Positions 38,030-53,165 of a DNA stretch of 64,000 nucleotides are shown piece by piece. Origin of the DNA: Candidatus Limimorpha avicola (lineage in GTDB: Bacteria; Bacteroidota; Bacteroidia; Bacteroidales; F082); NCBI GenBank assembly GCA_020907925.1, contig DZDN01000058.1:1574-65573 (forward strand), read 5' to 3'. Below the pieces are notes generated by a model. The model had not been told where the DNA came from. It worked only from the letters and a program-made list of their open reading frames with translations, and made no database searches. Numbering within the stretch: the first letter of the stretch is position 1; the number at the start of each line of letters is the position of its first letter. A program made the position numbers and the translations under genes.

Positions 38030-38051
38030 AATTATTTCTGTTTATTCGCTG

Positions 38052-38059
38052 CAAAGTTA
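38052..38059 (-). promoter_or_regulatory. Bacteroidota -7 promoter box TAACTTTG (minus strand) for argS
   Basis: CAAAGTTA on the plus strand, 23 nt upstream of the argS ATG and only 32 nt after the RHS stop codon. Confidence 0.5.
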
Positions 38060-38090
38060 ACAAAAAACGAACGTATAATCTTTAATTTTA

Positions 38091-41000
38091 TCAAAGTTTA
38101 AACGGTTTTGTCTGTTTATTTGAAAACATAGACATAAATAACGAGAAATTCATATCTCCTGTCCAAGTTCTACTGAAGCTGATAGGCACCACCTCAATAA
38201 TTTGTGCCGGAAGCATAGCGAACATGACACTTTTAACATATATCTTACCATTATCAATTACCACTTCATCAATACATCTAATTATTTCACAATTTCTATC
38301 TTCCGGCGAAAGTGTGTTTCTCAGTTCATTTTCAAAATGTGCCACTTGTTGGTCTGCCCAATCGGATGCATAGGCATGCTGAGTTAGAACATCATAAAAT
38401 ATCGGTATCAATATGCTGAAATCAAAACCGACATAACCCGGTCTAAAATTTTGAAAAACATATTTCCCGGCAAAAAGATTATCAAAGAAACTTGATGCTG
38501 TTTGTACTATAACATGTTTTGCAACATGTGAATTAGCAAGAAAATCGCACACTCTCAAACCCTCTTCATTATCTTTAGGAGCATGAATATATGCACATAA
38601 TGTTGATTTAGACAAACCTTTTCCGACACCACCCCAAAATGACTTTGTAACTTCAGACCAATTTACAGAATTATAATCTCCACTCCCATCATAATTTGCT
38701 ATGAATGAATTGGTTCCTGCCACAAGACCTCCTATTGCAGCATTACTCATGACTTGTACAATCCACGATGCAGAGATAACACCCTGTGAAACACAGCCTT
38801 GAATAAAGCCGGCTCCAAACGCCAACAATCCTTCCCCAAAAGTATCAATATTAGGTATATTTTTAATAATATTAAAAACACCACCACACAAACCTTGTAC
38901 GAGCCACTCTATCCACTCTCCTGTCGGGTCATTATATGACAACGGATTATTCAAACAATAACTGTACCTGTTATAATTCTGCGACATGTCTGGCAATTGG
39001 ACATTATTGTCAGGACTTAACATCATCGACATTAACGGATCATACATCCTTCCATTCATATTTATAAGTCCGAAATCCTTCAAATGCTCATGCCCTGTAA
39101 ATCCTCTGTCACACAACATATCACCATTATATGTGCCAGACCACGTATCTGCATTCCTTAAATTCCCCCACGCATCAAAACTCAATTCCTGTATTTTATT
39201 ACCATTTTCATCAGTAATAATATTCCATGAACCCAAATGGTCTTTATAAATAAAATAAAAACCTCTATCTCCTTCCGGTGTCAACACTTCTACAGCAAAC
39301 ACCCCAGCAGGACTTTGAATATATGTATATACAGTTGTCTTATTATTCTCAGTAACATATTCACAACCTCCGACATAGACCTTCTCAAGGGACTTGCCAT
39401 CTACCACTGATGTCACTTTACAGCGCTCATAATCAAAACCGTATTGAAAAGCAATCGTATTGTCTCCACTAATTATTTTATCCACTTTATCAAACATAGT
39501 ATAAGTAATTGTATGATTTATCCCTTCAATATCAACTTCTCCAAGTTTAGCCTTTACAATTGCATTTGGCTTTTCTGTATCATACTCTGCTTCAAAATAT
39601 ATATCTTTGCCATCCACAGATTTGCTATTGATATTTCCCAAAACATCATATTGCATTATTCCTGTAGTCATTCCATTGCGCCGTATTTTCGTAAGTCTGT
39701 CATATTTATCATATTCAAATTCCTCAGAAACCTTTGTTCCGGTATATTTACTACGCCCGGTAAGATTGCCGTTGCCATCGTATGAATATACAAGATTCTG
39801 TAATTCAAAATCACCTTTTTTTGTTAATATAGACAACAATCTGTTATTCAAATCATCATAAGAGAACTCTGATACACAACCATTGGCAGTCTCAAATTCC
39901 ACAATATTACCAAATGAATCGACTTTGTTGGCTGTCCAAATCACTTTCTCTCTATCGACATCAATTATCGACCTACAATACCCTGAATTTGAATATACAT
40001 TTTTTATTGTCAATCCACTTGGAAATGTCTCTTCCAATTTCCGTCCAACTTCATCATAAGTAAATGATGTAGAATACATTTCACCATCAATCATCTCATC
40101 AACCGATGTAACACGCAACAATTCATCATAATTATATGTAATCACCTGATTATCACCACATATTATCTTTTTTAACAAACCAATTTCACCATCATTATCT
40201 TCATAAATCCATTCAGTAACAATTTCCTTACCGGTATGTACGTCCTTATCAACACGTCTGACAGTTTGTCCTACAGCATTATAACTATATGTTGTAACAT
40301 TATTTTCCGGATAAATCATTTTAACAAGATTGTCAGCAGCATCATATTCATAGCACAAAACACCACCATTAGGGTCAGACAACCTCTTTTTATTGCCACG
40401 ATTATCATATTCCACATTGATGACTGTATTTTCATTACCAAGAATTTTAGCAGATTTAATATTTCCACTACTATAATAGTCATACACCACAGACGCTCCA
40501 CCATTATCTTCAGTCTCAATTAACCATCCCATAGGATTTGTCTTTTTAATCTTTTTTCTGACAGTACCATCATTCAAATAAGTTGTCAACACAACATTAT
40601 AGCCATCATATTGATATACAGCACGAGTGCCATCAGGACGACTCTCCTCTGTCAATCTTCCAAAAATATCGTATGTAAACGACACATAATCAACATTATC
40701 ACCTCTATAATATGGCAATGATTTTTTTACAAGATTCCCATTGTCATCATATTTCATGTCAACAAATACAGCATCACCATTAAGGTTAAAACTTACATTT
40801 CTCAACTCTTTACCTGTCTTATGATAAAAAGTCATAGTCTCAGCCTTGCCTGTAGTCTTGTCCCAAATATAATAAGATGCCCCCTCAGGTGCATATTCAT
40901 TACCTTCAGACCACAACTTAACCTTCACATTTCTAATACCGTCAGCCATAATTACATCCTGTCTAACTCCAAATGGATCTTCCAGTCTATTTGTAGTAAA

Positions 41001-44000
41001 ATCATTATAATCTGTCACTGCAGTAAGCATTCCATAATTCTTATCATAACAAGATTGCAGATTACGCCCCATTTCATCGACTGTCAAAGTTGGATATCTA
41101 TATTGATATTCAGGACCATAATCTAATTTTATCACTTTCTCATCTTTAAATGAAGAAGAAGTTTCCACTCTTTGCACGACATGACCGAAATCATCATACT
41201 GAAATGAAATCGAAACGGAAAGAGGATCAGTGATATCGCCATAAACATTAGGTATATAATCTCTCATCATAACTCGATGTGGATTATTGTCATCAGAATA
41301 ATGAAACATTTCAGTATTCCCAAAAACATTTTCCGACTTAAGAGACTGTTTTCTAACAATCATGGCAGGTCTGTTAATAAGCCAATTTGCATAATCAAGG
41401 TTATAATAGTTTTCTACTTTCGTCCAATACATATAATCCATAGGATTATCTCCTACATCTTTATAATCTACCGCCTCTGTAACACTATTCAAAATAATAG
41501 CATTCAAATAAACATTACTATTCAAATCACTGTTATATTCATTAACTGTCTTAACGACTTTATGCAATTTACCACGTTTGTCACAATCAAATATCTTTTC
41601 AGTCTTTCCTACCATCATTGGCATAATTATTTTATCATTGTCGATAAAACTGTATTTTTCATAAAAATAGTTCTCTTCTTTCAACAGGACATTATCATTC
41701 CCGAATAATTGCAACTTATCCAACAACATGATAAAATTTTCAGACATTGTTGACAATTCATTATATGTTATTTGTTTTCTATTTAAAACACCATTTACAT
41801 ATTCTTCTTTCATCACAGATTCAAAACCCATAAATCCATGACCATCCAAATGTATCTTGGCATTATTATAATAATATTTTGAAATGACGGGATTACCATT
41901 GATTGAGAATAATGTATCCGATTTCAAAGCTCGAATAGGGATTCCAATGCACATTACACCATTCTCCAAAGAAGGAGCATTTAAACTGTAAAATGATTGA
42001 GAATCATTTTTCGGCATAAGATAATCATATTCAAATCCCATACAATTTCCCATGCCGTCTGTTATTCTTTCGACATCATACATAGAAGTATGAGGATTCA
42101 ATGCAACAATTTTGGGAGTCTCAGCAGAATAAGGGGTTCTTCTAACACTTGACAATACTGAAATATTCTCTTGTCCCAAAAAGTTACCAAGATACACATA
42201 CTGATGTGCATAATTTATCGACATATAATATCTTTTATAATTTGCGAATGTAAACAGTATCTCATCTTTCAATCCTATTTTAAATCCCACTTCAAGATAA
42301 TAATTACCTCCGGAATTTTTAAATATGCCAATATCAGTTGTTCCATCACCATCAAAATCCGCAGTTCTTATCGTTACAGTAGGTTTTGCCAAATCTTTCA
42401 ACGAACACAAATATCTGTCAATAGGCTGAGGTGTCACACCTGCAAATATACTCGAATAGTCACAACGATATTTGTCCGTATAACCATTCCCTTTGGAAAA
42501 TCTTATAGTCCAATAAGTCTTTGGACTATAGACAAGAAGGTCTATATTACCATCTCCATTAAAATCTCCGGGAAAGACAAAATCATCAAGGGAGATATCT
42601 ATCCCACATTCTTTTATCAAAACATAATAACCATTATACAAAATCAATGAATAAAATCCCGATTCTTTTCCTCTTGTAGCCAAAAGTTCAGAAGCACCAT
42701 CTCCATTATAGTCCATTGGTTGAAAACGCTGTGCCTCATTAAACATATCATCAAAAAACACAACATTACTGAAACACGTCTCATCTTTATAATATAAATA
42801 TTTAACGTTAGTATTTGGAGACAAACTCCCATAATTCCCACTTATCAATAACAAAGAAGCTTTTCTTTCTCCCAAAAAATCTCCCGGATAAATATTAAAA
42901 ATATTATTTTCGGAATAATTATATACAAAATCAAATGTTTTCCCGTTATTGATATACATATTCATTGTTGTCAAAGTACCATTATCATTATCAACACTGT
43001 ATGAAACAATATCATCCTTGCCATCGCCGTTGAAGTCAACAACATAAATCCATTCCAAATATTTGTCAAAAATCATCGTAGTAAGCGGGAAGTCTTCAAA
43101 TCCTCCTTTCCCGGTATTCAAATATACATCAGCCAAAACATTTCCCGGATAAGTTTCACCCAATTTATAAGGCACCAAAATGACATCAGAAAGACCATCA
43201 CCATTAAAATCCCCAACAAATGGGACCTTGTTGAAAACATTTTTATCCAAAACATACGACTGATGTGCGTTGCCATAATGTTTCGATTTATCGTTCCATG
43301 ATATTCTCGTTGGATTCAGTTTGACGCCATCAACCGTTAATGTAACCTCAACAAGTCTATGATACATAAAATACACATTATCGTAATATTGTGGTTTCAG
43401 ATAATTAAATGAATAATTGTATAACTCACTATTTGACAACATATTCGATACAATAATATTTGTCAACAATCTTTTACTTTGAATAATAGCATCACCACAA
43501 AATGCGAAATCGCAATCCGTCTTTTCCTCATAGACAAATTCCACTTTATAAACAGCATCTTGATTGGTTTTATCATTATAAGTATAATATATACTTTTTA
43601 TGTAAACCTCTCCTGTTTTTTGATTCTCATCATAATGAAATGTCATATAATTACCATCTCTATCAGACACTTTATTAAGCATCCACATTAAAGTCAAATT
43701 ACTGTTATGTGAAGTCTCTATTTTCGAATCAACAGTATTGCCATATTCACATATTGTGCCATCAGCTTTCCATACCTCAAAATAATCAGGACCATTACTA
43801 TCCGGATATGATACTATTTTACTCATCATATCCATTTCAGTTTTATATATCAACTCATTTACCGAGCCTACTCCTTCAGAGACTTGAAACATTCTGTTGC
43901 CGTCAAGGGAATAAACATCATCATTAAAATCAACATCACCTATTTCTCCATCATGATAAATTGTCTTCCTCGCCCTTGTTATTGATGACAATCCTGAAAC

Positions 44001-44429
44001 ATTCCATCCCCAGCCAAGCAAACCATTACCTCCCTGACTATTATAAGAAACAGACAATTGAGGCAAGATATCTCCAATACAAGAAGGCATTTTTAAAGGA
44101 ATACTGTAAACAACACCTCCCATGTCACCTACATCATATACTCCTGACAAACTTCCGACAACACCATTGTCGCCCACCCCAGGGCCTCCGTAATATCCTT
44201 CTTCAGGCAAAAAGACTCCATATCTGTCTATACTAAGTTTCATATCATGACCATCGACAGGTTTATAACAAAACCCCTCTTTCAATGTTATGGACCTACT
44301 TGCCTGACAAACATAACTCACAATATTATTCATCTCCTCATTCAGGACAATATCTGTTTGATGATACATATCTTGAGCATTCATATAGCCTCCAATAAGC
44401 ATAACAAACAACAATAATTCTCTTTTCAT
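38091..44429 (-). CDS. Giant secreted polymorphic-toxin-type protein: signal peptide, SpvB/TcdB-N-like region, FG-GAP/VCBS beta-propeller repeats, TcdB-mid-like region, RHS/YD-repeat shell, RHS core end (DPTGEW), and an unassigned 273-aa C-terminal domain
   Basis: Signal peptide MKRELLLFVMLIGGYMNAQ. SpvB-like IPL..P...G..P.LSVSYNSQGGNGLLGWGW. Five DFNGDG-type FG-GAP motifs at aa 400-720. Many YD repeats (YDDNGNLV, YDIFGRLTEE, YDGNGNLTG and others). Core-end segment IYKDHLGSW..FDAWGN..FTGHEH..MNGRMYDP..NPLSYNDPTGEW. Confidence 0.9.
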   Translation of the reverse strand: MKRELLLFVMLIGGYMNAQDMYHQTDIVLNEEMNNIVSYVCQASRSITLKEGFCYKPVDGHDMKLSIDRYGVFLPEEGYYGGPGVGDNGVVGSLSGVYDVGDMGGVVYSIPLKMPSCIGDILPQLSVSYNSQGGNGLLGWGWNVSGLSSITRARKTIYHDGEIGDVDFNDDVYSLDGNRMFQVSEGVGSVNELIYKTEMDMMSKIVSYPDSNGPDYFEVWKADGTICEYGNTVDSKIETSHNSNLTLMWMLNKVSDRDGNYMTFHYDENQKTGEVYIKSIYYTYNDKTNQDAVYKVEFVYEEKTDCDFAFCGDAIIQSKRLLTNIIVSNMLSNSELYNYSFNYLKPQYYDNVYFMYHRLVEVTLTVDGVKLNPTRISWNDKSKHYGNAHQSYVLDKNVFNKVPFVGDFNGDGLSDVILVPYKLGETYPGNVLADVYLNTGKGGFEDFPLTTMIFDKYLEWIYVVDFNGDGKDDIVSYSVDNDNGTLTTMNMYINNGKTFDFVYNYSENNIFNIYPGDFLGERKASLLLISGNYGSLSPNTNVKYLYYKDETCFSNVVFFDDMFNEAQRFQPMDYNGDGASELLATRGKESGFYSLILYNGYYVLIKECGIDISLDDFVFPGDFNGDGNIDLLVYSPKTYWTIRFSKGNGYTDKYRCDYSSIFAGVTPQPIDRYLCSLKDLAKPTVTIRTADFDGDGTTDIGIFKNSGGNYYLEVGFKIGLKDEILFTFANYKRYYMSINYAHQYVYLGNFLGQENISVLSSVRRTPYSAETPKIVALNPHTSMYDVERITDGMGNCMGFEYDYLMPKNDSQSFYSLNAPSLENGVMCIGIPIRALKSDTLFSINGNPVISKYYYNNAKIHLDGHGFMGFESVMKEEYVNGVLNRKQITYNELSTMSENFIMLLDKLQLFGNDNVLLKEENYFYEKYSFIDNDKIIMPMMVGKTEKIFDCDKRGKLHKVVKTVNEYNSDLNSNVYLNAIILNSVTEAVDYKDVGDNPMDYMYWTKVENYYNLDYANWLINRPAMIVRKQSLKSENVFGNTEMFHYSDDNNPHRVMMRDYIPNVYGDITDPLSVSISFQYDDFGHVVQRVETSSSFKDEKVIKLDYGPEYQYRYPTLTVDEMGRNLQSCYDKNYGMLTAVTDYNDFTTNRLEDPFGVRQDVIMADGIRNVKVKLWSEGNEYAPEGASYYIWDKTTGKAETMTFYHKTGKELRNVSFNLNGDAVFVDMKYDDNGNLVKKSLPYYRGDNVDYVSFTYDIFGRLTEESRPDGTRAVYQYDGYNVVLTTYLNDGTVRKKIKKTNPMGWLIETEDNGGASVVYDYYSSGNIKSAKILGNENTVINVEYDNRGNKKRLSDPNGGVLCYEYDAADNLVKMIYPENNVTTYSYNAVGQTVRRVDKDVHTGKEIVTEWIYEDNDGEIGLLKKIICGDNQVITYNYDELLRVTSVDEMIDGEMYSTSFTYDEVGRKLEETFPSGLTIKNVYSNSGYCRSIIDVDREKVIWTANKVDSFGNIVEFETANGCVSEFSYDDLNNRLLSILTKKGDFELQNLVYSYDGNGNLTGRSKYTGTKVSEEFEYDKYDRLTKIRRNGMTTGIMQYDVLGNINSKSVDGKDIYFEAEYDTEKPNAIVKAKLGEVDIEGINHTITYTMFDKVDKIISGDNTIAFQYGFDYERCKVTSVVDGKSLEKVYVGGCEYVTENNKTTVYTYIQSPAGVFAVEVLTPEGDRGFYFIYKDHLGSWNIITDENGNKIQELSFDAWGNLRNADTWSGTYNGDMLCDRGFTGHEHLKDFGLINMNGRMYDPLMSMMLSPDNNVQLPDMSQNYNRYSYCLNNPLSYNDPTGEWIEWLVQGLCGGVFNIIKNIPNIDTFGEGLLAFGAGFIQGCVSQGVISASWIVQVMSNAAIGGLVAGTNSFIANYDGSGDYNSVNWSEVTKSFWGGVGKGLSKSTLCAYIHAPKDNEEGLRVCDFLANSHVAKHVIVQTASSFFDNLFAGKYVFQNFRPGYVGFDFSILIPIFYDVLTQHAYASDWADQQVAHFENELRNTLSPEDRNCEIIRCIDEVVIDNGKIYVKSVMFAMLPAQIIEVVPISFSRTWTGDMNFSLFMSMFSNKQTKPFKL

Positions 44430-44441
44430 AACAATAACATT

Positions 44442-44897
44442 TTACAGTTTCAACACTATCTTAGTCTGAACATAACCTTCAAACTCCACTTTCATCAAAT
44501 ATACCCCTCGTGGGAAACACGAAATATCCAATGTATGTCTTTCACATACAATCTGACAATCAACAAGTTTCACTCCATTCATATTATAAAAGCTTAAAGT
44601 TGCTTTATTATCACTGTCTATCGATTTCAACTGCACGGTAAGACATCCGCTGGTTGGATTAGGAAACACTCTCATTTCCTCATCCAGAACACATTCATCC
44701 AATACATAATCACTTGTAATAGTATTTTTCATCTTGTCAAACTTTTTTTCATCATTGCAATCATCACCGAGCCACCGTTCTATTCTATTACCATTATTAT
44801 CATAACTAAATGACAAACAATACTGTGCAAATAAATCACCTGTTTGGATCAAGTATAATACTATCACAAGAAACACAAAACAATATTTCCGTTTCAT
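44442..44897 (-). CDS. Small secreted protein: signal peptide, a single YD-type repeat (SFSYDNNGNRIERW) and a T9SS C-terminal sorting domain
   Basis: Por_Secre_tail pattern VFPNPTSGCLTVQL...GVYLMKVEFEGYVQTKIVLKL. It sits 12 nt upstream of the RHS gene. Confidence 0.75.
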   Translation of the reverse strand: MKRKYCFVFLVIVLYLIQTGDLFAQYCLSFSYDNNGNRIERWLGDDCNDEKKFDKMKNTITSDYVLDECVLDEEMRVFPNPTSGCLTVQLKSIDSDNKATLSFYNMNGVKLVDCQIVCERHTLDISCFPRGVYLMKVEFEGYVQTKIVLKL

Positions 44898-44918
44898 AAT
44901 ATTATCCTTTTAAAATTA

Positions 44919-45899
44919 CTATTTTAGAGTATTGATAATATCCTGTTGCTTCTTAATTTGTTTTTGTAGTTCTATGGTATAGAGTGTAAGTTCCTCGATT
45001 TTCTTAAGCAACAATCCCTGAAATTTGACGATTTCGTAACCTTCAGTCAACACTTCAAATTCTGATGGAATATCCGGAAGATGTCTGTTTTTCTTGATAT
45101 AACGCTCCAACTCCTTCAACGAGATAAGATTGTAATCATCTTCAAAAACATCATCGTGCCATTCTTCTACCTCTTTGACATATACCTCATTAGTAAGAAT
45201 ACCTCCTGATACCGCCAATGAATAGTTATATGAATCTTCAAATACATTATTAGTATTAATGCCAATTTTACCAAAAAGTGCAACTCTTTCTGCCTCTATG
45301 CTCAGGTTGTCATCCACAGCTTTTATTCCCATTCCGTCTTTAGATACCGATATCACATGATTATCATCATACATTTGGAGGAACACCTTGTTGGTCATTT
45401 TATTTTTAGTTTCAAGAATAACTCCGGCATCTTCACTATAATCCGATTTTATATGTAATTTAGCTTGCGGTTCAATAACATCCCCTATTCCCACTTTGCC
45501 TGTCGATTCATTTCCAAGCGACGGACCGACGAACAAAGTCGGATGTTTACTGTTAAAGCTTATTATCAATGAATTTGGTTTATTATTAATAAGAGCCTTA
45601 TTATCCAAGTCACCAAGACCTGAACCTATAACCACCGCATTGGTAGCTTCCGCGCGTACAAAAGTCCCCAATGCCATAGAAGTACCACCTTTTGCCTTTG
45701 CCGAATTTCCTACAGCCAACGAATAGACTCCAGTCGTACTATTATTAATACCCAATGTTGCCGAAAATGTTCCATTAGGTTCATTTTGATATTGTCCGGA
45801 AGTTGGACCACAAATATCGCACCCATTAGTGTCCTGCGCTTTTATCACAGCACACATCATCTGCAGCAGTATAATAACTGCCAATAAAATATGTTTCAT
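44919..45899 (-). CDS. Secreted fibre-like protein: YadA-head/Hep_Hag-like repeats with a C-terminal heptad (coiled-coil) module
   Basis: Signal peptide. S.A.G...A.G repeats (FSATLGINNSTTGVYSLAVGNSAKAKGGTSMALG). C-terminus HLPDIPSEFEV....LLLKKIEELTLYTIELQKQIKK. Confidence 0.6.
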   Translation of the reverse strand: MKHILLAVIILLQMMCAVIKAQDTNGCDICGPTSGQYQNEPNGTFSATLGINNSTTGVYSLAVGNSAKAKGGTSMALGTFVRAEATNAVVIGSGLGDLDNKALINNKPNSLIISFNSKHPTLFVGPSLGNESTGKVGIGDVIEPQAKLHIKSDYSEDAGVILETKNKMTNKVFLQMYDDNHVISVSKDGMGIKAVDDNLSIEAERVALFGKIGINTNNVFEDSYNYSLAVSGGILTNEVYVKEVEEWHDDVFEDDYNLISLKELERYIKKNRHLPDIPSEFEVLTEGYEIVKFQGLLLKKIEELTLYTIELQKQIKKQQDIINTLK

Positions 45900-45930
45900 A
45901 AATTCTGTTTTTAAAGGTTCTAATTTATCA

Positions 45931-47409
45931 TTATTTTTTGATGAATGTACCAGTTAAAATACAATCATCACCATCTATTAATTTGCAACAATATGTGCCA
46001 CTGTTCAGGGGAGAAACGTCAATTGTCAGAATGTTTCCATTAGTTCCAATTGTTTTATCCAAAAACATCCTTCCTGCAATATCATATACCTGGATGCGTG
46101 CATTTCTCATCTCAAAACCTGAAGTTTTTATATTCACAATATCGTTTGCCGGATTAGGAAATATATCCACATCAATATCTTCAACAATATTATCAGAAAC
46201 AGAAACAACAAGTTCAATATCTTCTCTTAACACTTTGAAAATCTGCACTATTGTTGGTTTCTCTCCAGTTACATTGATTGAATGTACAATAACTCCGCCA
46301 TCTTTTGTAGGCTGTGCATTTACCGACAATGCAATATCACAATCATTACCAAATTCTTTTCTTCCTAACAAATTCAAATCTTTATCAATCATAGTAACAG
46401 TAGTAGGAAGATATTCCGGATCATAAAAATTATAAAGACTAAAAACCGCTGATAGTATATATATCGTCGAATCATTAATATAGACATTATTGCAATATTG
46501 AGCCAAATAGTCCGATGTATCAGCTCGCATCAAAGGAAGTCTTTCCGAAACATCTCCTGTAATATTCATTTTCAACACTTCAGTATAGTAATCCGTAATT
46601 GAAGAAGCATCTTTAATCCTTCTTACAGGTATCAAAAATTCCTCCTCATCATACCAATAATCAGTATTTATGCAACAAACCGAATAATCGAACGGCAGCA
46701 CGCTATGTGCAATATACTCCAAATCTTTGTCAAAACGGCTTAATGTAATATGTCCGGCAACATCAAAAGCCTCTCCGATAAGCAAATATTCCTCTGTTCC
46801 CGGTATCTTCTCAAGGTCATGAGGCACTCCACCAGAAGGACGATGACCGGTATGAATAACTTTCTTCAAAACATTCAAATCATCATCTACTTCCATGAAT
46901 ATCAGATCGCCATCTCCTGACCATCTCTCCTCCTGAACTATCATGGCAATATTGTTATCATAAGATTTTGTCATGACCGACCAGTCTCTCCACGAATAAT
47001 AATTCTCATCCAATGGAATAAACTCTTCCTTCACTATCTCAAGTTCAGAATTCATAATAGACAACCATAAATACTCAAAAGCTTCAGTAATATCATCATC
47101 ACTCGCCAATCCGATGACAATAATACTGTCGCCATTCAACTTCATAGATGAATTGAAAAAACTTTTTTTCTTTTCTGTTGTAAACACTTTACGTGTATAA
47201 TTATCATCATTATCAATAAATATCGCTACCGGTCTATAATCATAACCGGAACCACAAAACGTAGTTATTCCAACAAGATAATTACCATTTTCAACCATTG
47301 TACCACCACTAAAATACTCATGTTTCTCAGATGGATAACTTATTTCCCATTGTTGAGCATTCACGACTATCGTCGTTAAAAACATCATTAAGACAGTAAT
47401 TTTTTTCAT
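45931..47409 (-). CDS. Secreted protein of unknown function with a T9SS C-terminal sorting domain
   Basis: Signal peptide (..VVNAQQ). C-terminal IFPNPANDIVNIK....GTYCCKLIDGD....GTFIKK matches the Por_Secre_tail pattern. Confidence 0.7.
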   Translation of the reverse strand: MKKITVLMMFLTTIVVNAQQWEISYPSEKHEYFSGGTMVENGNYLVGITTFCGSGYDYRPVAIFIDNDDNYTRKVFTTEKKKSFFNSSMKLNGDSIIVIGLASDDDITEAFEYLWLSIMNSELEIVKEEFIPLDENYYSWRDWSVMTKSYDNNIAMIVQEERWSGDGDLIFMEVDDDLNVLKKVIHTGHRPSGGVPHDLEKIPGTEEYLLIGEAFDVAGHITLSRFDKDLEYIAHSVLPFDYSVCCINTDYWYDEEEFLIPVRRIKDASSITDYYTEVLKMNITGDVSERLPLMRADTSDYLAQYCNNVYINDSTIYILSAVFSLYNFYDPEYLPTTVTMIDKDLNLLGRKEFGNDCDIALSVNAQPTKDGGVIVHSINVTGEKPTIVQIFKVLREDIELVVSVSDNIVEDIDVDIFPNPANDIVNIKTSGFEMRNARIQVYDIAGRMFLDKTIGTNGNILTIDVSPLNSGTYCCKLIDGDDCILTGTFIKK

Positions 47410-47433
47410 GACAATATTATTTTAAATTAACAA

Positions 47434-48516
47434 TTATTTCTGTAGCAAATCAACTGGTAATCCCAAATCAAGTACCGGAATTGCTATTTTTTCACCATAT
47501 AATATAAAATTCTCATGTCTTCTCAAAGTTCCTCCTGACACTATTGAACTGTTTCCTTGAATATCCACCTCCATAAATTTCGGATTTTGTGGCAATTGCC
47601 CACTATATTTAGGGTCATTGGGTACAAGTTCCATAATAACATCAACTTCATTTTGAAAATAATAATTCAATAAAGAACCGCTTAGATACAAATATTGAAG
47701 ATTGTTAATCCAATAATAAATATAGTATTCACCATTATATTTTACATATTCATTACCCAACAGATGTATCATGGACTGTGAAAAATAAATATTCCGGTAT
47801 CCATCAACAGCAGCCGGAGACCATCCATAATAGTAATTAATCCAATATTCTATCCATTCCGCTGCATCACCCCATTCAGAAGGGTCGTCGCAAGAGCCTC
47901 CGTACTCACCAAAGTACCAGCAATCATCCTCACCAAAAGGTCCGACATAATACACATTAAGATTTCCGGGATCCTCAGGTATAGACCTTCCCGAAGACAC
48001 CAAAGCTATTATCTCCAAACGGTTGTTTTCGACCTCTCCTTTCTCAAAAAACACATTTTTCAACGATTTGTTTTGAACAATTCCATCGTTAGAATAGGCT
48101 GTTCTAACATCATTTATGATTTGATCATATAATAATGCCACATCACTCATCGACACGACATTATTGTTGACAGGTACAGAAAACACCAATTCCTGAGTAA
48201 CAATTTTATCATATAACAAGTCAGGGAAAGTATATGAAGCATTAAACAAAGCCTCAATATTCCACACCACACTGTCGATACTGATAAAATCCTCACTTTT
48301 TGAAGCAAGACCATCGGCAATGGACATTCTGTTTTTAAAATTTTTTATTTTTCCAACAATACTCGAGGCATCAATTTGTTCTGTACTACCAATATTATCA
48401 GAAAGTATACTCTGAATCGGTTCAATATATTTCTTCCTACAGGCATACAATGCCATTGCCAGAACAATAATGCAAAACAACACTTTTAAAATACTTTTAT
48501 AATAACTATGTTTCAT
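47434..48516 (-). CDS. Putative lipoprotein of unknown function
   Basis: Signal peptide with a lipobox-like LYAC. The C-terminal half is rich in aromatic and acidic residues (WYFGEYGGSCDDPSEWGDAAEWIEYWINYYYGW). Confidence 0.6.
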   Translation of the reverse strand: MKHSYYKSILKVLFCIIVLAMALYACRKKYIEPIQSILSDNIGSTEQIDASSIVGKIKNFKNRMSIADGLASKSEDFISIDSVVWNIEALFNASYTFPDLLYDKIVTQELVFSVPVNNNVVSMSDVALLYDQIINDVRTAYSNDGIVQNKSLKNVFFEKGEVENNRLEIIALVSSGRSIPEDPGNLNVYYVGPFGEDDCWYFGEYGGSCDDPSEWGDAAEWIEYWINYYYGWSPAAVDGYRNIYFSQSMIHLLGNEYVKYNGEYYIYYWINNLQYLYLSGSLLNYYFQNEVDVIMELVPNDPKYSGQLPQNPKFMEVDIQGNSSIVSGGTLRRHENFILYGEKIAIPVLDLGLPVDLLQK

Positions 48517-48697
48517 AATTTTTTGGTTTTTTAAATTCTATTTAAGCACTTTCTAATACATACACAGATTTTTGACTGAAAAATTGTCTTTTTATCTTAT
48601 GTCTAATTTTTTATCCTTAACTGCCGACATTCACACCAAGGATTTTCGTTCAATCATATCAATACCTCCTTTGCATTTTTTAACGTTTGTCTTATCG

Positions 48698-48705
48698 CAA
48701 AGATA
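48698..48705 (-). promoter_or_regulatory. Candidate -7 promoter box TATCTTTG (minus strand) for the five-gene RHS operon
   Basis: CAAAGATA on the plus strand, about 180 nt upstream of the lipoprotein ATG. It is the only such box I found on this strand in the 700-nt spacer. Confidence 0.35.
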
Positions 48706-49048
48706 AAGACCAAACAAAGTTTTGTCAATAGTTTTTTCATTAATTTTTATTTATTAATCATATTATATTCAATAAGATATCTTAAAAGTTATTAACATTT
48801 TATAAAAATAATATATTATAAATATGTGAATCATTGTATCTATGATATAAAAAATCTTAACAATGTTAAAAATCGCCACATCAAGATTCATATTCTTCAT
48901 TCCAGGTCCAAATTTCATTTTCTTTTCTTCACAATCACATATTAAAAATGCATTACTTTCATGCAGATTTTACCTACGAAAGAGATAATGTCAGATATTC
49001 AGAACATATTTTTTTGTAAAAACCTCTTGACAATAACAAAAAATGACG

Positions 49049-49056
49049 TAACTTTG
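49049..49056 (+). promoter_or_regulatory. Bacteroidota -7 promoter box TAACTTTG for pyrBI
   Basis: TTG-N-TAACTTTG arrangement about 170 nt upstream of pyrB. Confidence 0.5.
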
Positions 49057-49063
49057 CACTTTG

Positions 49064-49210
49064 ATGACAAGAGTAAGGAATTTAGCGGAGTTAGCATCTA
49101 AGGTATTAAAAAGAAGAAATTCTTTTGAAAATAAAATATTTTCATTTTCGTTGACGGTTTTTGAAGCCGTCTTTTTTTTTATTCAGAAACATCATATTGT
49201 TAAACTATAA
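49064..49210 (+). promoter_or_regulatory. pyrBI leader: 48-codon leader ORF running through a U-rich tract and an intrinsic terminator (candidate attenuator)
   Basis: I hand-translated the ATG at 49064 through to the TAA at 49208-49210 with no in-frame stop. The hairpin GACGGTTT/AAGCCGTC (49153-49171) plus T9 (49172-49180) lies inside this ORF. Confidence 0.5.
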
Positions 49211-49225
49211 AACATATTGTCTATC

Positions 49226-50632: not shown

Positions 50633-52036
50633 TCACCTTAGTTTTATATCTTTCCATTTATCGGTCAATCTCGATGAATAAATAACAGAAGGTGTTTGAG
50701 TTTTTTTAAACTCTGATAATGAGTATGTTTTAACTTTACTCTGAACTTCATAAAACAATCCCCCGAGTGTTAGATTTGAGGGATTGTTTTGTATTTCTTT
50801 CAAAAGGAAATATGTAAAGACACCGTGTTTCTTATCTTCATACTGAAAAGCCGTTTCGTTTCCCTGTGCAGCGAAACAAGCCACCACATTGCCATCAAGC
50901 ACCCTTGTCTTGGATTTTATTCCTGACGTTATATCATCGACTAAAACTGTTCCTTTTCTATTATAACAATTAAAACTCGCATCAACAAACACCACAGCTG
51001 ATTTTACCGGCATGGCACTCAGATTCTCAAAGAAATAATCCACGCTAAAACATGTTTTTATTTTTGAGAAGCGACCTTCTACAGGGACGAAATACGACTT
51101 TTTGTTTCTGTTTGACGATATGCCATGTCCGACATAATATATTATAAATTTGGTCTCCTCTCCATATTGCTTTGCCACGCCAGACATCCATTTTATCATT
51201 ATCTCAAAATCCTTCAATGTGGCATTTTGCACAAATTTAAGGTTTCTTTTCGGGACACACAAAGTTTTTATACAATAATTCTTAAATGTTTCGGCATCAT
51301 TTTTAGCGAACTTAACCTTAGGCTCCTTTCTATAATTTTCATTTGCTATTATCACGACCCAAGTATTCTTATTCACTGAATCCATCACCGGAATATCCTT
51401 GTCTATACTATGGTTTTTCTCATCGACACCGTTACGCACTCTTTCTCCAAAAATATATACAGGAGATAGCATATAAGGTACTCCCATATACATAGAGTCA
51501 ATTATCCCCTTATTAATATATTGAAATCTCGAGCCGTCAGGCAGCATAAAATCCACCTTTGCCAACCCAAGAGTATCTTTATAAATAAAATAATCCGGTT
51601 TCAACACTATATCAGACCATGAAGAGATAAAATAATCAGATTTTACGACAGGCACTTTTACCGACAATCGTCCAAAATAATTTTCAGACATAATCATCTG
51701 TTCATTATTCCTGTCATAACCATCAATATTCAAATCGAGGACATAAGTTCTTGATATTTCTTCCAGATACTTATCAGATGCCTCAGCCTCCAAAAGGACT
51801 ATCATCTCCTGCTTATGAGATTCACTAACTCTGTTTTTATATCTTGCATTAGATTCTCCCGGCTGTTTTCTCTGCCATTCATCAATTGCATTTTCCACAT
51901 AAGCCTTTACGAAAACACTATATCCAGATTCAGGACGTACCATTCTGACGGGTTTAGACGAAGTCAACGACACTATCTGTCCAAACAACATTGAACTCAT
52001 CAATACCAACAATATAGTCAACAAATGTTTTCGCAT
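50633..52036 (-). CDS. Secreted caspase-fold (peptidase C14-like) protein with a ~220-aa N-terminal domain of unknown function; Ser at the catalytic Cys position
   Basis: Signal peptide. The caspase p20-like pattern is VVIIANENY..L.FAKNDAE.F, then YYVGHG (His present), then VVFVDAS (canonical is DAC), then HGVFTYFLL...QTP. Confidence 0.65.
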   Translation of the reverse strand: MRKHLLTILLVLMSSMLFGQIVSLTSSKPVRMVRPESGYSVFVKAYVENAIDEWQRKQPGESNARYKNRVSESHKQEMIVLLEAEASDKYLEEISRTYVLDLNIDGYDRNNEQMIMSENYFGRLSVKVPVVKSDYFISSWSDIVLKPDYFIYKDTLGLAKVDFMLPDGSRFQYINKGIIDSMYMGVPYMLSPVYIFGERVRNGVDEKNHSIDKDIPVMDSVNKNTWVVIIANENYRKEPKVKFAKNDAETFKNYCIKTLCVPKRNLKFVQNATLKDFEIMIKWMSGVAKQYGEETKFIIYYVGHGISSNRNKKSYFVPVEGRFSKIKTCFSVDYFFENLSAMPVKSAVVFVDASFNCYNRKGTVLVDDITSGIKSKTRVLDGNVVACFAAQGNETAFQYEDKKHGVFTYFLLKEIQNNPSNLTLGGLFYEVQSKVKTYSLSEFKKTQTPSVIYSSRLTDKWKDIKLR

Positions 52037-52037
52037 C

Positions 52038-53165
52038 TTACAAAGCCAATCTAAATCCTATGTCAAAACGCCGTGTATTAGGGACAAGACCCTGTCTATA
52101 ATGGATACGGCATTTTTCTTCCCTATCATACCAGCTTCCACCTCTTACCGCAAAAAACGCCCCCTCTTCCTTACCCGTAGGATTGATCTGAGAACCTCCT
52201 TCGTAATCCCCAAAAATATCTCCGCACCATTCAGACACATTACCTGTCATGTCGAACAAACCAAGTTCATTTGACAGTTTCTGAGCGACATGATGCACGC
52301 CATAGTCAATATCATCTTGACCCACATTACAACTATTATACCAATACCATGCCACATCATAAATATCATGGCCACCTGAGAAAAGATATCTGTTAGAATC
52401 CTCACCACCTTTAGCTGCATATTCCCATTCCGCCTCTGTCGGCAATCTAAAATCCTCTCCCGTAACATGTTTCAGCCATGTACAATATGCCACTGCATCA
52501 TTCCAACTAACATGTATCACAGCTCTGTCGTAGTCAGCCTCATTCAAGACATTACCATCCTGGTCACATCTCCAGTTCACACCTTTTTTCAACTCCCAAT
52601 AGCCTCTGCCCCAGACATAGCTGCCGCCATATTTATCCGCATCTGTCTTATAATCGGTAGCATCTACAAACTGTTTAAACATGCGTACTGTAACCTCAGT
52701 CTTACCAATACAAAAATCACTCACCACCACTTCATGTGCAGGCATAGTATTACTCTTAGGAGCGTTATTTTTCTGCTTTTCTCCCATCATAAAAGAGCCG
52801 CCCATCACTTTCATCATCTCTATCAAAGTGCCGTTGACATCTATAGTACGTTTAGCCTCTTTTATTTTCACCTTAAAAACCACAGCGTCAGAATACAACA
52901 TGTCGCGTTCCGCATATACGTGCCACACTGCAGTTTTTTTCCCTGGCATAACATTCTCACCCACATCGCCGCTCACCTGTTTCAACGGCGGTCCAAAAGT
53001 CTTGCCTCCATCTGTAGAGCATTGAATATCAATATCCGACACAGCATCAAGAACATAATATATCTCTATATTATTACCGACAACCTTGAAGTCAGCGTCA
53101 GTAACACTTTGCGTTCTTGCTGTCAGAGTCACTGTCAGGAAGAGGAGGCAAAACAACCTTTTCAT
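52038..53165 (-). CDS. Secreted FGE/SUMF1-fold (FGE-sulfatase domain) protein with an N-terminal beta-sandwich-like domain
   Basis: Signal peptide. HEV.V..F.IGKTEVT, WNDAVAYCTWL, RLPTEAEWEYAAKGG, NVSEWC, RGGSW and GFRL motifs. Confidence 0.8.
   Translation of the reverse strand: MKRLFCLLFLTVTLTARTQSVTDADFKVVGNNIEIYYVLDAVSDIDIQCSTDGGKTFGPPLKQVSGDVGENVMPGKKTAVWHVYAERDMLYSDAVVFKVKIKEAKRTIDVNGTLIEMMKVMGGSFMMGEKQKNNAPKSNTMPAHEVVVSDFCIGKTEVTVRMFKQFVDATDYKTDADKYGGSYVWGRGYWELKKGVNWRCDQDGNVLNEADYDRAVIHVSWNDAVAYCTWLKHVTGEDFRLPTEAEWEYAAKGGEDSNRYLFSGGHDIYDVAWYWYNSCNVGQDDIDYGVHHVAQKLSNELGLFDMTGNVSEWCGDIFGDYEGGSQINPTGKEEGAFFAVRGGSWYDREEKCRIHYRQGLVPNTRRFDIGFRLAL

Follow-up and report, generated by a model that had tools for sequence, protein, structure and literature searches.

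Gene content and genomic setting

Between pyrBI at one end and argS at the other, five open reading frames (g1 to g5) lie on the minus strand of the 64,000-nt stretch of Candidatus Limimorpha avicola DNA that was analysed (the window). The gaps between them are 24, 31, 21 and 12 nt, and a further 61 nt separate g5 from argS. The genes encode a 360-aa predicted lipoprotein (g1, 47434–48516), a 492-aa secreted protein (g2, 45931–47409), a 326-aa fibre-like protein (g3, 44919–45899), a 151-aa putative adaptor (g4, 44442–44897) and a 2112-aa fused TcB/TcC-like RHS protein (g5, 38091–44429). All five products carry an N-terminal export signal, one being a lipobox and the other four SPI-type signals cleaved between A and Q. 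Domains were called on the five products by using Pfam and NCBIfam profiles. An earlier note on this DNA had described close-packed minus-strand ORFs between housekeeping genes, and both its coordinates and its flanks were confirmed, as was the local absence of a PAAR, VgrG, TcA or immunity ORF.

The spacer 5' of g1 (48517–49216, 700 nt) has a GC content of 24.7%, and a regex scan returned exactly one minus-strand TAnnTTTG match within it, in agreement with the AT-rich spacer and single box that had been reported. This Bacteroidetes-type −7 box (TATCTTTG, 48698–48705, minus strand) is located 182 nt 5' of the g1 start codon. A box of this type was found within a few hundred nt 5' of g1 at 47/47 orthologous loci (the nearest one 45–162 nt upstream), and it probably serves as the promoter. 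The GC content of the operon, 34.1%, is below that of the window (37.5%) and that of rpoBC (41.8%); the operon is therefore more AT-rich than rpoBC, as had been suspected, but only modestly so. A foreign AT-rich island was ruled out, given the same site in 47/47 species.

Synteny was assessed in 47 species-representative metagenome-assembled genomes (MAGs) of uncultured gut Bacteroidales. The order pyrI-pyrB, g1, g2, g3, g4, RHS gene, argS was kept in 47/47 related species; a lack of synteny between the accessory genes and the RHS gene had been named beforehand as a refutation, and g1–g4 were found beside it at every locus. The operon is thus a fixed, vertically inherited core locus on the chromosome. 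Identity to the related species was 70–92% for flanking proteins and 24–58% for operon proteins, dN in the operon was 10–30 times that of the flanks, and dN/dS was 0.05–0.48 in the operon versus 0.00–0.07 in the flanks. These dN/dS values indicate that all five genes are functional yet fast-evolving. The genes are intact across the MAGs, with g5 intact at 2054–2140 aa in 45/47 orthologous loci. No immunity gene was found in any of the 47 loci, nor was a TcA-like gene found within 10 kb at any of them.

The RHS protein and its C-terminal domain

The g5 product begins with a Sec signal peptide (YMNA/QD) and has no T9SS C-terminal sorting domain (CTD). Its SpvB/TcB N-terminal domain (aa 103–291, 43557–44123, minus strand; PF03534, E = 4e-16) matched the YenB chains 4igl_A, 9c4k_P and 5kis_A (E = 2e-5). 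This is followed by an FG-GAP beta-propeller (aa 407–700, 42330–43211, minus strand; PF13517 and PF01839, FG-GAP/FG-GAP_3) in which the motif D[FY][ND]GDG occurs five times (aa 407, 465, 573, 622 and 691). The YD/RHS shell (38919–42146, minus strand) consists of a TcdB_midN-like region (TcdB_toxin_midN, PF12256, just sub-threshold at 23.8 vs 24.8 bits), RHS repeats (PF05593, E = 9e-26) and a terminal Rhs-associated core (TIGR03696, aa 1752–1837, E = 2e-13) that ends in DPTGEW. The terminal shell motifs, GRMYDP..SPDN..NNPLSYNDPTGE, are conserved in orthologues. The shell matched solved Rhs cocoons (8qja, 7q97), and this part of g5 gave its best solved-structure matches, to T6SS Rhs effectors (E = 1e-12 to 1e-6); orthologues also matched PF25023 (TEN_YD-shell). 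The dN/dS of g5 was 0.08–0.16. Profiles and motif scan bear out the fused architecture, the five FG-GAP motifs and the shell end described earlier: the single g5 chain has the full TcB plus TcC anatomy, from the SpvB domain through the FG-GAP propeller and the YD shell to the Rhs-associated core.

Downstream of the DPxGE site, RHS proteins of the operon type carry a C-terminal cargo domain of 233–298 aa, which in g5 spans aa 1839–2112 (38094–38915, minus strand). The head of this domain is conserved, Gly-rich and moderately hydrophobic (WxEWLxxGxxGGxxNxxxNxxxIDxFGEGxLxFGxGF), and the tail is divergent and carries the motif YSLFxxLF. A Gly-rich hydrophobic start recalls the membrane-active C-terminal domain of Tse5, which we take as a lead only. 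With 27 D/E vs 18 K/R, the cargo is acidic overall, whereas Tc cargos passing the TcA channel are reportedly basic. Searches of Pfam and the PDB returned no match and no recognisable toxin fold. Among 1.84e9 representative proteins, 10 cargo-like matches were obtained, and all those inspected or long enough to judge were C-terminal on RHS proteins; the family was seen on RHS cores only and on no other delivery scaffold. A swapped polymorphic tip was ruled out, since the domain is homologous in 26/26 aligned orthologues. The cargo is one conserved family and a putative toxin. The C-terminus had earlier been taken for a toxin payload, but the domain is conserved and non-polymorphic, and no toxin fold was matched.

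Accessory proteins and their wider distribution

In g1, the lipobox (..LYA/C, then RKK) contains an invariant Cys26, followed by Lys28. Its 70 homologues (35–66% identity) included none with a Pfam domain (0/70), and no match was found outside the gut Bacteroidales clade. AF2 gave a confident model (pLDDT 86.7, pTM 0.80), for which no fold match was found in the PDB or BFVD; dN/dS was 0.06–0.17. The g2 product consists of an SPI signal (VNA/QQ), an N-terminal part of ~400 aa to which no family was matched, and a type-A T9SS CTD (aa 416–492; Por_Secre_tail, E = 1e-13, and TIGR04183). This CTD is kept in 23/23 orthologues, and the g2 profile matched the solved T9SS CTD 8glj_D (E = 2e-9). Both g1 and g2 were seen solely in the gut Bacteroidales clade.

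The g3 product has a signal peptide (IKA/QD) and no CTD. It contains beta-roll repeats resembling a YadA head, a beta domain in the middle and a conserved helical module at the C-terminus (EWHDxVF..HLPDxPSE..LLKKIEELTLY), with secondary structure read from a low-confidence model (pLDDT 52); the motif GCD(L/I)CGP is invariant in the alignment. The sole Pfam/NCBIfam domain match was a sub-threshold YadA_head (21.6 vs 25 bits), and phrog_14251 was matched at E = 3e-9. The trimeric state that had been suggested for the fibre was not borne out, this g3-g4 structure model being poor. The g3 family (1633 homologues) is a broad one whose members mostly lie apart from RHS genes (37/43 environmental loci are RHS-less).

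Behind its signal peptide (LFA/Q), the g4 product consists solely of one motif that resembles a YD repeat (QYCLSFSYDNNGNRIERW), an acidic linker and a T9SS CTD of type A (aa 77–148; Por_Secre_tail, E = 1e-11, kept in 22/22 orthologues). The earlier claim that two accessories are T9SS-tagged is therefore upheld, and the CTDs of g2 and g4 match solved T9SS substrates. The pattern Q..C..YD..GNR is invariant in 48/48 g4 sequences. The RHS protein has seven copies of the YD motif, whereas the other window proteins (16,397 aa) have one; the motif is thus ~55-fold denser in the RHS protein. Pfam did not detect RHS_repeat in g4, and an HMM of the g4 N-terminal part reached E = 1.4e-3 at best against RHS proteins, compared with 0.18 against shuffled controls; recognition of the motif by Pfam and HMM is weak.

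Independent in-frame g3-g4 fusions were identified in two lineages (P0120 and P0131), and both drop exactly the g4 signal peptide and keep mature g4; one was recovered on contigs of two samples, in operon context. Moreover, g4-like ORFs were present in 4/6 RHS-linked loci vs 0/37 RHS-less g3 loci (Fisher p ~1e-4). Together, the fusions and the confinement of g4-like genes to RHS loci support a functional link of g3 and g4 to the RHS protein. An adaptor of this type is not obligatory, because two RHS-linked loci (L122, L126) have g3 and the RHS gene without a g4-like gene.

Gene-order conservation was also found in distant Bacteroidota, where the g3-g4-RHS core recurs. A plasmid of Amniculibacterium (Flavobacteriales) carries a g3-like gene annotated as a 'cell wall anchor protein' and ending in the g3-type helical module, a T9SS type-A protein of 152 aa beginning QTTEIYFKYDEAGNQ, and a 2221-aa RHS gene; the same triad is present at environmental loci L057, L058, L060, L115 and L134. 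Plasmid-borne relatives have differing C-terminal domains and small downstream ORFs in polymorphic-toxin style, and share with the cargo the Gly-rich hydrophobic head after DPxGE. The general RHS partners are g3 and g4 only. The idea that all four small proteins form an apparatus for the RHS protein is supported for these two, but g1 and g2 were found in one clade only.

Proposed function and relation to known systems

We put at roughly 55% the probability that the operon encodes an RHS capsule system associated with T9SS, with g3 and g4 acting as functional partners to the RHS protein. The RHS protein would cross the inner membrane via Sec, fold in the periplasm as a closed shell round its own cargo, and cleave the cargo autoproteolytically. 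Because its C-terminus would sit within the shell, it could not carry a T9SS CTD of its own. The g4 protein would reach the cell surface by T9SS through its CTD and may bridge the g3 fibre to the RHS shell, perhaps with its YD hairpin joining the shell sheet. We infer that display or release of the capsule is coupled to T9SS, with g4 as adaptor, and that the RHS protein is itself exported in a T9SS-dependent manner. That g4 bridging supplies the T9SS signal in trans (a hitch-hiker step) is a tentative suggestion that we rate well below even odds; a literature search found no precedent for trans-CTD export, and a folded shell of ~230 kDa may exceed the capacity of the T9SS translocon. The CTD-tagged g2 and lipoprotein g1 would be clade-specific factors for assembly or anchoring. 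A fibre-capsule particle, displayed or released, could then dock on a target by the fast-evolving surfaces of g3, g2 and the propeller, and the cargo, whose head is Gly-rich and hydrophobic, may act on the target membrane or cross it. The target would probably be non-kin, with other bacteria and eukaryotes (gut protozoa, host cells) as candidates. We propose that the producer can do without an immunity gene, since it would never contain free cargo and would probably not target kin.

Alternatively, g2, g3 and g4 could be an ordinary T9SS surface fibre or adhesin that is merely co-regulated with a periplasmic capsule, which would exit by outer membrane vesicles or lysis. The Sec-only, CTD-less RHS protein, the RHS-less majority of g3 loci, the two loci without g4 and the missing trans-CTD precedent fit such independence. 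We regard it as unlikely, given that g4-like genes occur beside RHS genes only, that g4 contains an RHS-type motif, that strict order with gaps of 12–31 nt is kept in 47/47 species, and that the triad is kept across orders of Bacteroidota.

A surface organelle for adhesion or recognition, similar to teneurins, is less likely still; shell and propeller would be its scaffold, and the C-terminal domain would be structural or a membrane anchor. The non-polymorphic C-terminal family, the lack of an immunity gene (0/47 loci), purifying selection on a core-genome locus, the TEN_YD-shell matches and the undetectable toxin fold are all compatible with it, and g5 resembles teneurins and bacterial teneurin-like proteins in pairing a YD shell with a beta-propeller that plugs and decorates it. 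Unlike teneurins, g5 is a bacterial secreted protein with an FG-GAP-type propeller, and it keeps the Rhs-associated core and cleavage-site motif, as in encapsulating toxins; the variable C-terminal domains and small ORFs of the plasmid relatives, and the head shared with these toxin-like proteins, also count against it.

A classical antibacterial Rhs polymorphic toxin, delivered by T6SS or with its immunity gene elsewhere in the genome, is very improbable. T6SS can occur in Bacteroidales, the analysis covered 64 kb of this genome, and the core and shell of g5 resemble those of the T6SS effectors RhsA, Tse5, Tse15 and Tre23 (PDB 7q97, 8cp6, 8uxt, 7pq5). However, g5 has no PAAR, VgrG, clade domain, chaperone or immunity gene, its N-terminus is a cleavable periplasmic-export signal followed by SpvB, the distance to argS leaves no space for an immunity gene (likewise in the 47 species), and its C-terminal domain is non-polymorphic and on no other delivery scaffold. 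A canonical Tc (ABC) toxin with TcA encoded elsewhere in the genome has the least to recommend it: the B plus C cocoon of g5 is like YenB/YenC and TcdB2-TccC3, down to a putative aspartyl-protease core for cleaving the encapsulated cargo, and orphan BC-type genes occur in other bacteria (PMC7861908), but g5 joins B and C in a single chain that bears a Sec signal, has no nearby TcA-like gene, carries an acidic cargo, and has T9SS-tagged or fibre proteins as conserved partners.

Returning to the T9SS-associated capsule, its closest described relatives are the 'TcdB/TcaC-type' polymorphic toxins, reported from Bacteroidetes and other phyla, which combine a signal peptide, SpvB, an integrin-like beta-propeller, RHS and a C-terminal toxin (Zhang et al. 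2012, PMC3482391). As far as that paper's account of this type goes, g5 shares the domain order from signal peptide through C-terminal domain, but differs in having one conserved C-terminal family rather than a shuffled cassette, no immunity gene, a fixed position in the core genome of 47 species, and defined accessories g1–g4, no such set being found described in that account. In Apibacter, multiple and variable rhs genes of SpvB/TcdB type adjoin T9SS type-A sorting-domain genes, and a T9SS association was independently proposed as a hypothesis (Steele & Moran 2021, PMC8125069). The earlier remark that no characterised example was known holds, although the adjacency, which the present operon shares, had already been noticed. 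Beyond that report (PMC8125069), what is new here is the resolution of the partner as a YD-motif plus CTD mini-protein with a fibre gene 5' of it, the g3-g4 fusions, the clade-specific g1 and g2, the non-polymorphic cargo and the absence of an immunity gene. The operon hints at an uncharacterised export route for RHS toxin capsules.

Layout and products of the operon

Five minus-strand ORFs were found at exactly the positions assigned to them in the earlier note (48516-47434, 47409-45931, 45899-44919, 44897-44442, and 44429-38091), and the gaps between them, expected to span 12-31 nt, measured 24, 31, 21, and 12 nt. In this order they encode g1 (a predicted lipoprotein of 360 aa), g2 (a 492-aa protein with a T9SS C-terminal sorting domain, or CTD), g3 (a fiber-like protein of 326 aa), g4 (a 151-aa T9SS-CTD protein with a YD-like motif), and an RHS protein of 2112 aa. 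The suspicion that the operon is more AT-rich than rpoBC was borne out by computed GC contents: 34.1% in the operon, compared with 37.5% over the whole window and 41.8% in rpoBC, a gap that is real but modest.

Domains in the operon products were searched for using Pfam and NCBIfam. In the RHS protein, the SpvB/TcdB-N-like region described earlier was recovered as SpvB (PF03534, aa 103-291, E=4e-16), and a match to a solved structure gave similarity to YenB (E=2e-5). The five FG-GAP motifs that had been counted were all present as D[FY][ND]GDG, together with matches to FG-GAP and FG-GAP_3 (E=3e-14), while TcdB_toxin_midN (PF12256) fell just short of its cut-off (23.8 vs 24.8 bits) and was only faint in orthologues. 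The YD shell, said to end in DPTGEW, returned RHS repeats (E=9e-26) and the Rhs-associated core (TIGR03696, aa 1752-1837, E=2e-13), which does end in that sequence, and the motif GRxYDP..SPDN..DPxGE was kept across orthologues. The sequences of g2 to g5 (g5 being the RHS protein) read as having signal peptides cleaved in an A|Q context, and the N-terminus of g1 reads as a lipobox (LYA|C); in g2 and g4 the hydrophobic N-terminus and its A|Q site are kept in orthologues.

Both upstream products credited with T9SS CTDs carry type-A sorting domains (g2, E=1e-13; g4, E=1e-11). These Por_Secre_tail/TIGR04183 domains were present in all orthologues of g2 and g4, and that of g2 matched solved T9SS substrates, while the N-terminal 400 aa of g2 matched no family; no such C-terminal domain was detected in g1, g3, or the RHS protein. 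For g1, Pfam and NCBIfam gave zero matches, and searches of PDB and BFVD with its confident AF2 model (pLDDT 86.7) gave no significant fold match.

In g4, the signal peptide is followed by a Q-x-C-x5-D-x-x-G-x-R segment and another Cys, with an acidic linker leading to the CTD. The segment (..YD..GNR) was invariant in 48/48 sequences, and the motif [hydrophobic]-x-[YF]-D-x-x-G-[NRQ] occurs seven times in the RHS protein versus once in 16,397 aa of other window proteins. Pfam did not recognize RHS_repeat in the g4 N-terminus, and a custom HMM of this region searched against RHS proteins gave weak support; judged by the motif and its enrichment in the RHS protein, the g4 N-terminus would be YD-repeat-like.

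In the alignment of g3, the mature N-terminus (GCDLCGP) is invariant and the helical module at the C-terminus is strongly conserved; the protein also has beta-roll-like repeats. Because a model of a g3-g4 fusion was too poor for a fold search (pLDDT 52), the proposal that g3 is a trimeric fiber rests on weak similarity to YadA_head (sub-threshold, 21.6 vs 25 bits) and to a PHROG of undefined function. A tblastn search of phage genomes with g3 gave no match. In-frame fusions of g3 with mature g4 were found in two lineages with different junctions, one of them recovered within the operon on contigs of two samples; they are Rosetta-stone evidence that g3 and g4 act together. In one g3 orthologue (P0072, 403 aa) the middle domain is duplicated, with ..KLHxxSDxNEDAGxILETSNK.. 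present twice, which suggests that fiber length can vary through domain duplication.

The spacer upstream of g1, described as 700 nt long and AT-rich with one promoter-like box, was indeed 700 nt with 24.7% GC and one minus-strand TAnnTTTG. No significant element was returned for it by Rfam. An invertible, phase-variable promoter was considered for this spacer and was dropped because its inverted repeats are only low-complexity, AT-rich sequence. On the plus strand, about 45 nt 5' of the pyrB start (49217), a G+C-rich hairpin (49153-49171) and an ensuing stretch of nine Ts resemble a pyrBI leader or attenuator, and a further TAnnTTTG box is located at 49049 on the pyrBI strand. Given these pyrBI-side features, two divergent promoters probably share the spacer.

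The remaining scanned ORFs of the window were housekeeping genes, with the exception of a caspase/FGE-sulfatase pair. This tight minus-strand pair (Peptidase_C14, 50633-52036; FGE-sulfatase domain, 52038-53165) is located between pyrI and rpoC, a slot that is variable among relatives, being occupied by 23S_rRNA_IVP in locus L001 and by radical SAM, NTP_transf_5, and an FGE-sulfatase fragment in L003, and empty in L005. The slot could represent a small insertion site that is variable or defense-like.

Conservation and evolution within the clade

Contig look-ups, together with scanning a single genome for each species, yielded 47 species-level MAGs, all of them uncultured Bacteroidales that inhabit the gut of ruminants, horses, or humans. 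Among them, one is named Candidatus Limimorpha and some are labeled Lentimicrobiaceae. The five-gene order was conserved by tblastn in every sufficiently long locus, as pyrI-pyrB, g1, g2, g3, g4, RHS, and argS. ORF calling found all five genes intact across the 47 loci with two exceptions, both RHS genes, one truncated at 1229 aa and one broken by a contig end. For the truncated gene (L031:14055-17744), tblastn similarity runs to the usual end, so that the short ORF reflects either a frameshift/pseudogene or an assembly error. A TAnnTTTG box was present 5' of g1 in 47/47 loci, the nearest copy being 45-162 nt upstream.

Identities to the window proteins (tblastn) were 70-92% for the flanking pyrI, pyrB, and argS, and 35-46% for g1, 24-32% for g2, 49-58% for g3, 27-38% for g4, and 40-47% for the RHS protein; global alignment in four loci gave slightly different figures, such as 29-38% for g4 and 41-43% for the RHS protein. 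For g1, 70 full-length homologues were collected at 35-66% identity. In ten close species pairs, dN/dS was 0.00-0.07 for the flanks and 0.05-0.48 for the operon, and dN in the operon was 10-30x that of the flanks. The five operon genes are therefore under purifying selection, yet evolve much faster than their neighbors.

A horizontally acquired island was considered and rejected because the locus occupies the same position in 47 species and differs only modestly in GC. The locus is instead a vertically inherited, expressed-looking core operon.

In some close pairs (L045/L047, L051/L052, and others) dS was also higher in the operon than in the flanks, for example 2.07 for RHS against 0.25-0.66 for pyrB, pyrI, and argS. 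This hints that operon alleles were replaced by recombination between lineages, beyond faster point substitution.

On the downstream side, only 61 nt (38030-38090) lie between the end of the RHS gene and the essential, same-strand argS, with no terminator-like hairpin among them, and tight RHS-argS spacing was also seen in related genomes. Transcription of argS may in part be shared with the operon, or may start at a promoter inside the RHS 3' end.

Relatives outside the clade and the cargo domain

The g3 homologues listed were in-clade orthologues, and the context of the g3 family beyond the clade was sampled through plasmid and metagenome scans. A tblastn search of plasmids with the RHS N-terminal region identified an Amniculibacterium (Flavobacteriales) plasmid with a comparable gene order. 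Its first product, of 297 aa and annotated as 'cell wall anchor protein', shares the C-terminal module of g3 (about 30% identity over the full length); next come a 152-aa T9SS type-A protein with the mature end QTTEIYFKYDEAGNQ and a 2221-aa RHS gene product, with small ORFs downstream. On a Parabacteroides plasmid, tail-fiber-domain proteins with CTD-like tails were located upstream of an FG-GAP/RHS gene. The metagenome scan using the g3 alignment returned over 579 loci. Of the 80 that were retained, context was counted in the 43 with at least 2.5 kb downstream of g3. An SpvB-type RHS gene directly followed g3 in 6/43, and a g4-like ORF lay between the two in four of these six, compared with 0/37 RHS-less g3 loci (Fisher p ~1e-4, by our own arithmetic). 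No relatives of g1 were found outside the clade by homologue search and tblastn, and g2 had no tblastn match there. The plasmid and metagenome contexts, taken with the lack of out-of-clade g1 and g2, define a general module of fiber, YD/CTD mini-protein, and RHS protein. Within it, g4 is the RHS-specific partner and g3 a member of a large fiber family mostly used elsewhere than at RHS loci; g1 and g2 were added by this clade.

Tandem arrays of genes with the g3 C-terminal module (KIEELTLY) and no RHS gene nearby were also observed on environmental Bacteroidota contigs, with 8 copies each in L094 and L119 and 4 each in L104, L118, and L127. The array genes form a large, apparently unstudied fiber family, members of which are labeled 'cell wall anchor protein' by NCBI.

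The cargo, the C-terminal domain after DPxGE (aa 1839-2112), measured 233-298 aa after DP(S/T)GE, the predicted cleavage site, in orthologues. Its head is Gly-rich, moderately hydrophobic, and well conserved; its tail diverges strongly and comes in a short and a long form; and close to the C-terminus the aromatic motif YSLFxxLF is conserved. The domain is acidic in net charge. The same family was present in 26/26 aligned orthologues and, by motif, in 43/45. No counterpart was found in Pfam or among solved structures, the cargo alone gave zero matches against a large protein collection, and phmmer, run exhaustively over 1.84 billion representative proteins, gave just 10 matches; where length or sequence inspection allowed a judgment, these were RHS-protein C-termini or fragments thereof. 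With one family in orthologues and only these 10 relatives, the cargo is not a shuffled polymorphic toxin cassette. The cargo domain and g1 are new protein families.

The usual end of the Rhs core is DPxGL. In all inspected Bacteroidota SpvB-type RHS proteins (from L055-L058, L115, L122, and the window), the core ended in DPxGE and the C-terminal domain opened with a hydrophobic, Gly-rich segment, whatever followed. This common opening suggests a shared membrane-active or translocation head.

Known systems and a candidate export route

A signal peptide combined with SpvB, propeller, and RHS regions is a recognized class, assigned to the 'TcdB/TcaC' pathway in Zhang et al. 2012 (PMC3482391). 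Apibacter Rhs proteins with SpvB/TcdB N-termini adjoin T9SS type-A sorting-domain genes, and Steele & Moran 2021 (PMC8125069) proposed that they are associated with T9SS. Our literature search found no characterized example of such a system and no description of the YD/CTD adaptor, the fiber partner, the g3-g4 fusions, or the core-genome, immunity-less form.

Alongside the directly observed anatomy, synteny, fusions, and co-occurrence, a dedicated export route for RHS capsules in Bacteroidota is put forward tentatively, at a probability of roughly 0.3. The RHS protein would be exported through Sec, fold in the periplasm, and encapsulate itself. T9SS would recognize g4, whose YD hairpin would dock on the folded shell and connect it with the g3 fiber, thereby lending the RHS protein, in trans, a CTD that it cannot have of its own. 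The fiber-tipped capsule would then be displayed on the cell surface or released from it, and the cargo would act on the membrane of a non-kin target. One gut Bacteroidales family would have domesticated this route as a core-genome, immunity-less organelle with a new membrane-active cargo family. The T9SS type-A signature of a CTD with an N-terminal Sec signal is found in g2 and g4 only, and no T9SS machinery (SprA/Sov, PorV, GldKLMN) was among the scanned ORFs of the 64-kb window. Unlike a YadA-like trimeric autotransporter, g3 lacks a membrane-anchor beta-barrel and ends in a helical module; it scored 14.8 against NF033478 (cut-off 750).

Two rivals stand beside the T9SS-adaptor route: export could be independent of it, with the RHS capsule leaving by OMV or lysis, or the operon could encode an adhesion organelle that is teneurin-like and non-toxic. 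A Tc toxin whose TcA lies far away would share the TcB-like SpvB domain and beta-propeller, the TcC-like RHS shell, the Rhs core with its putative aspartyl autoprotease, and a cargo in the 200-400 aa range, but it is contradicted by the lack of a TcA gene, which was absent from the 64-kb window as claimed and from within about 10 kb in the 47 related loci. A classical T6SS or immunity-linked Rhs toxin shares the RHS/YD shell and Rhs-associated core, but is contradicted by an N-terminus that is a signal peptide, with no PAAR, VgrG, or clade domain matched in Pfam or NCBIfam, by neighbors that are housekeeping genes, by a C-terminal domain that is not polymorphic between species, and by the absence of a cognate downstream immunity gene, argS following directly after 61 nt here and directly in all 47 loci; the earlier note had likewise reported neither a T6SS marker nor an immunity gene.

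Sec-exported SpvB/RHS cocoon proteins without TcA or T6SS are common in Bacteroidota. As to how they reach their targets, the locus offers a concrete, testable answer in the form of a conserved fiber and a YD-motif/T9SS-CTD adaptor, with natural fusions and an adaptor found only beside RHS genes, and so makes the export of RHS capsules directly testable. If the T9SS-adaptor route is true, it would take over the function of TcA or T6SS and be a third delivery solution for RHS capsules, and trans-acting (hitch-hiker) cargo recognition would join T9SS biology. A fast-evolving surface organelle would then be universal in an abundant uncultured Bacteroidales family of the rumen, horse, and human gut, where it may affect competition, resistance to protozoan grazing, or host interaction.
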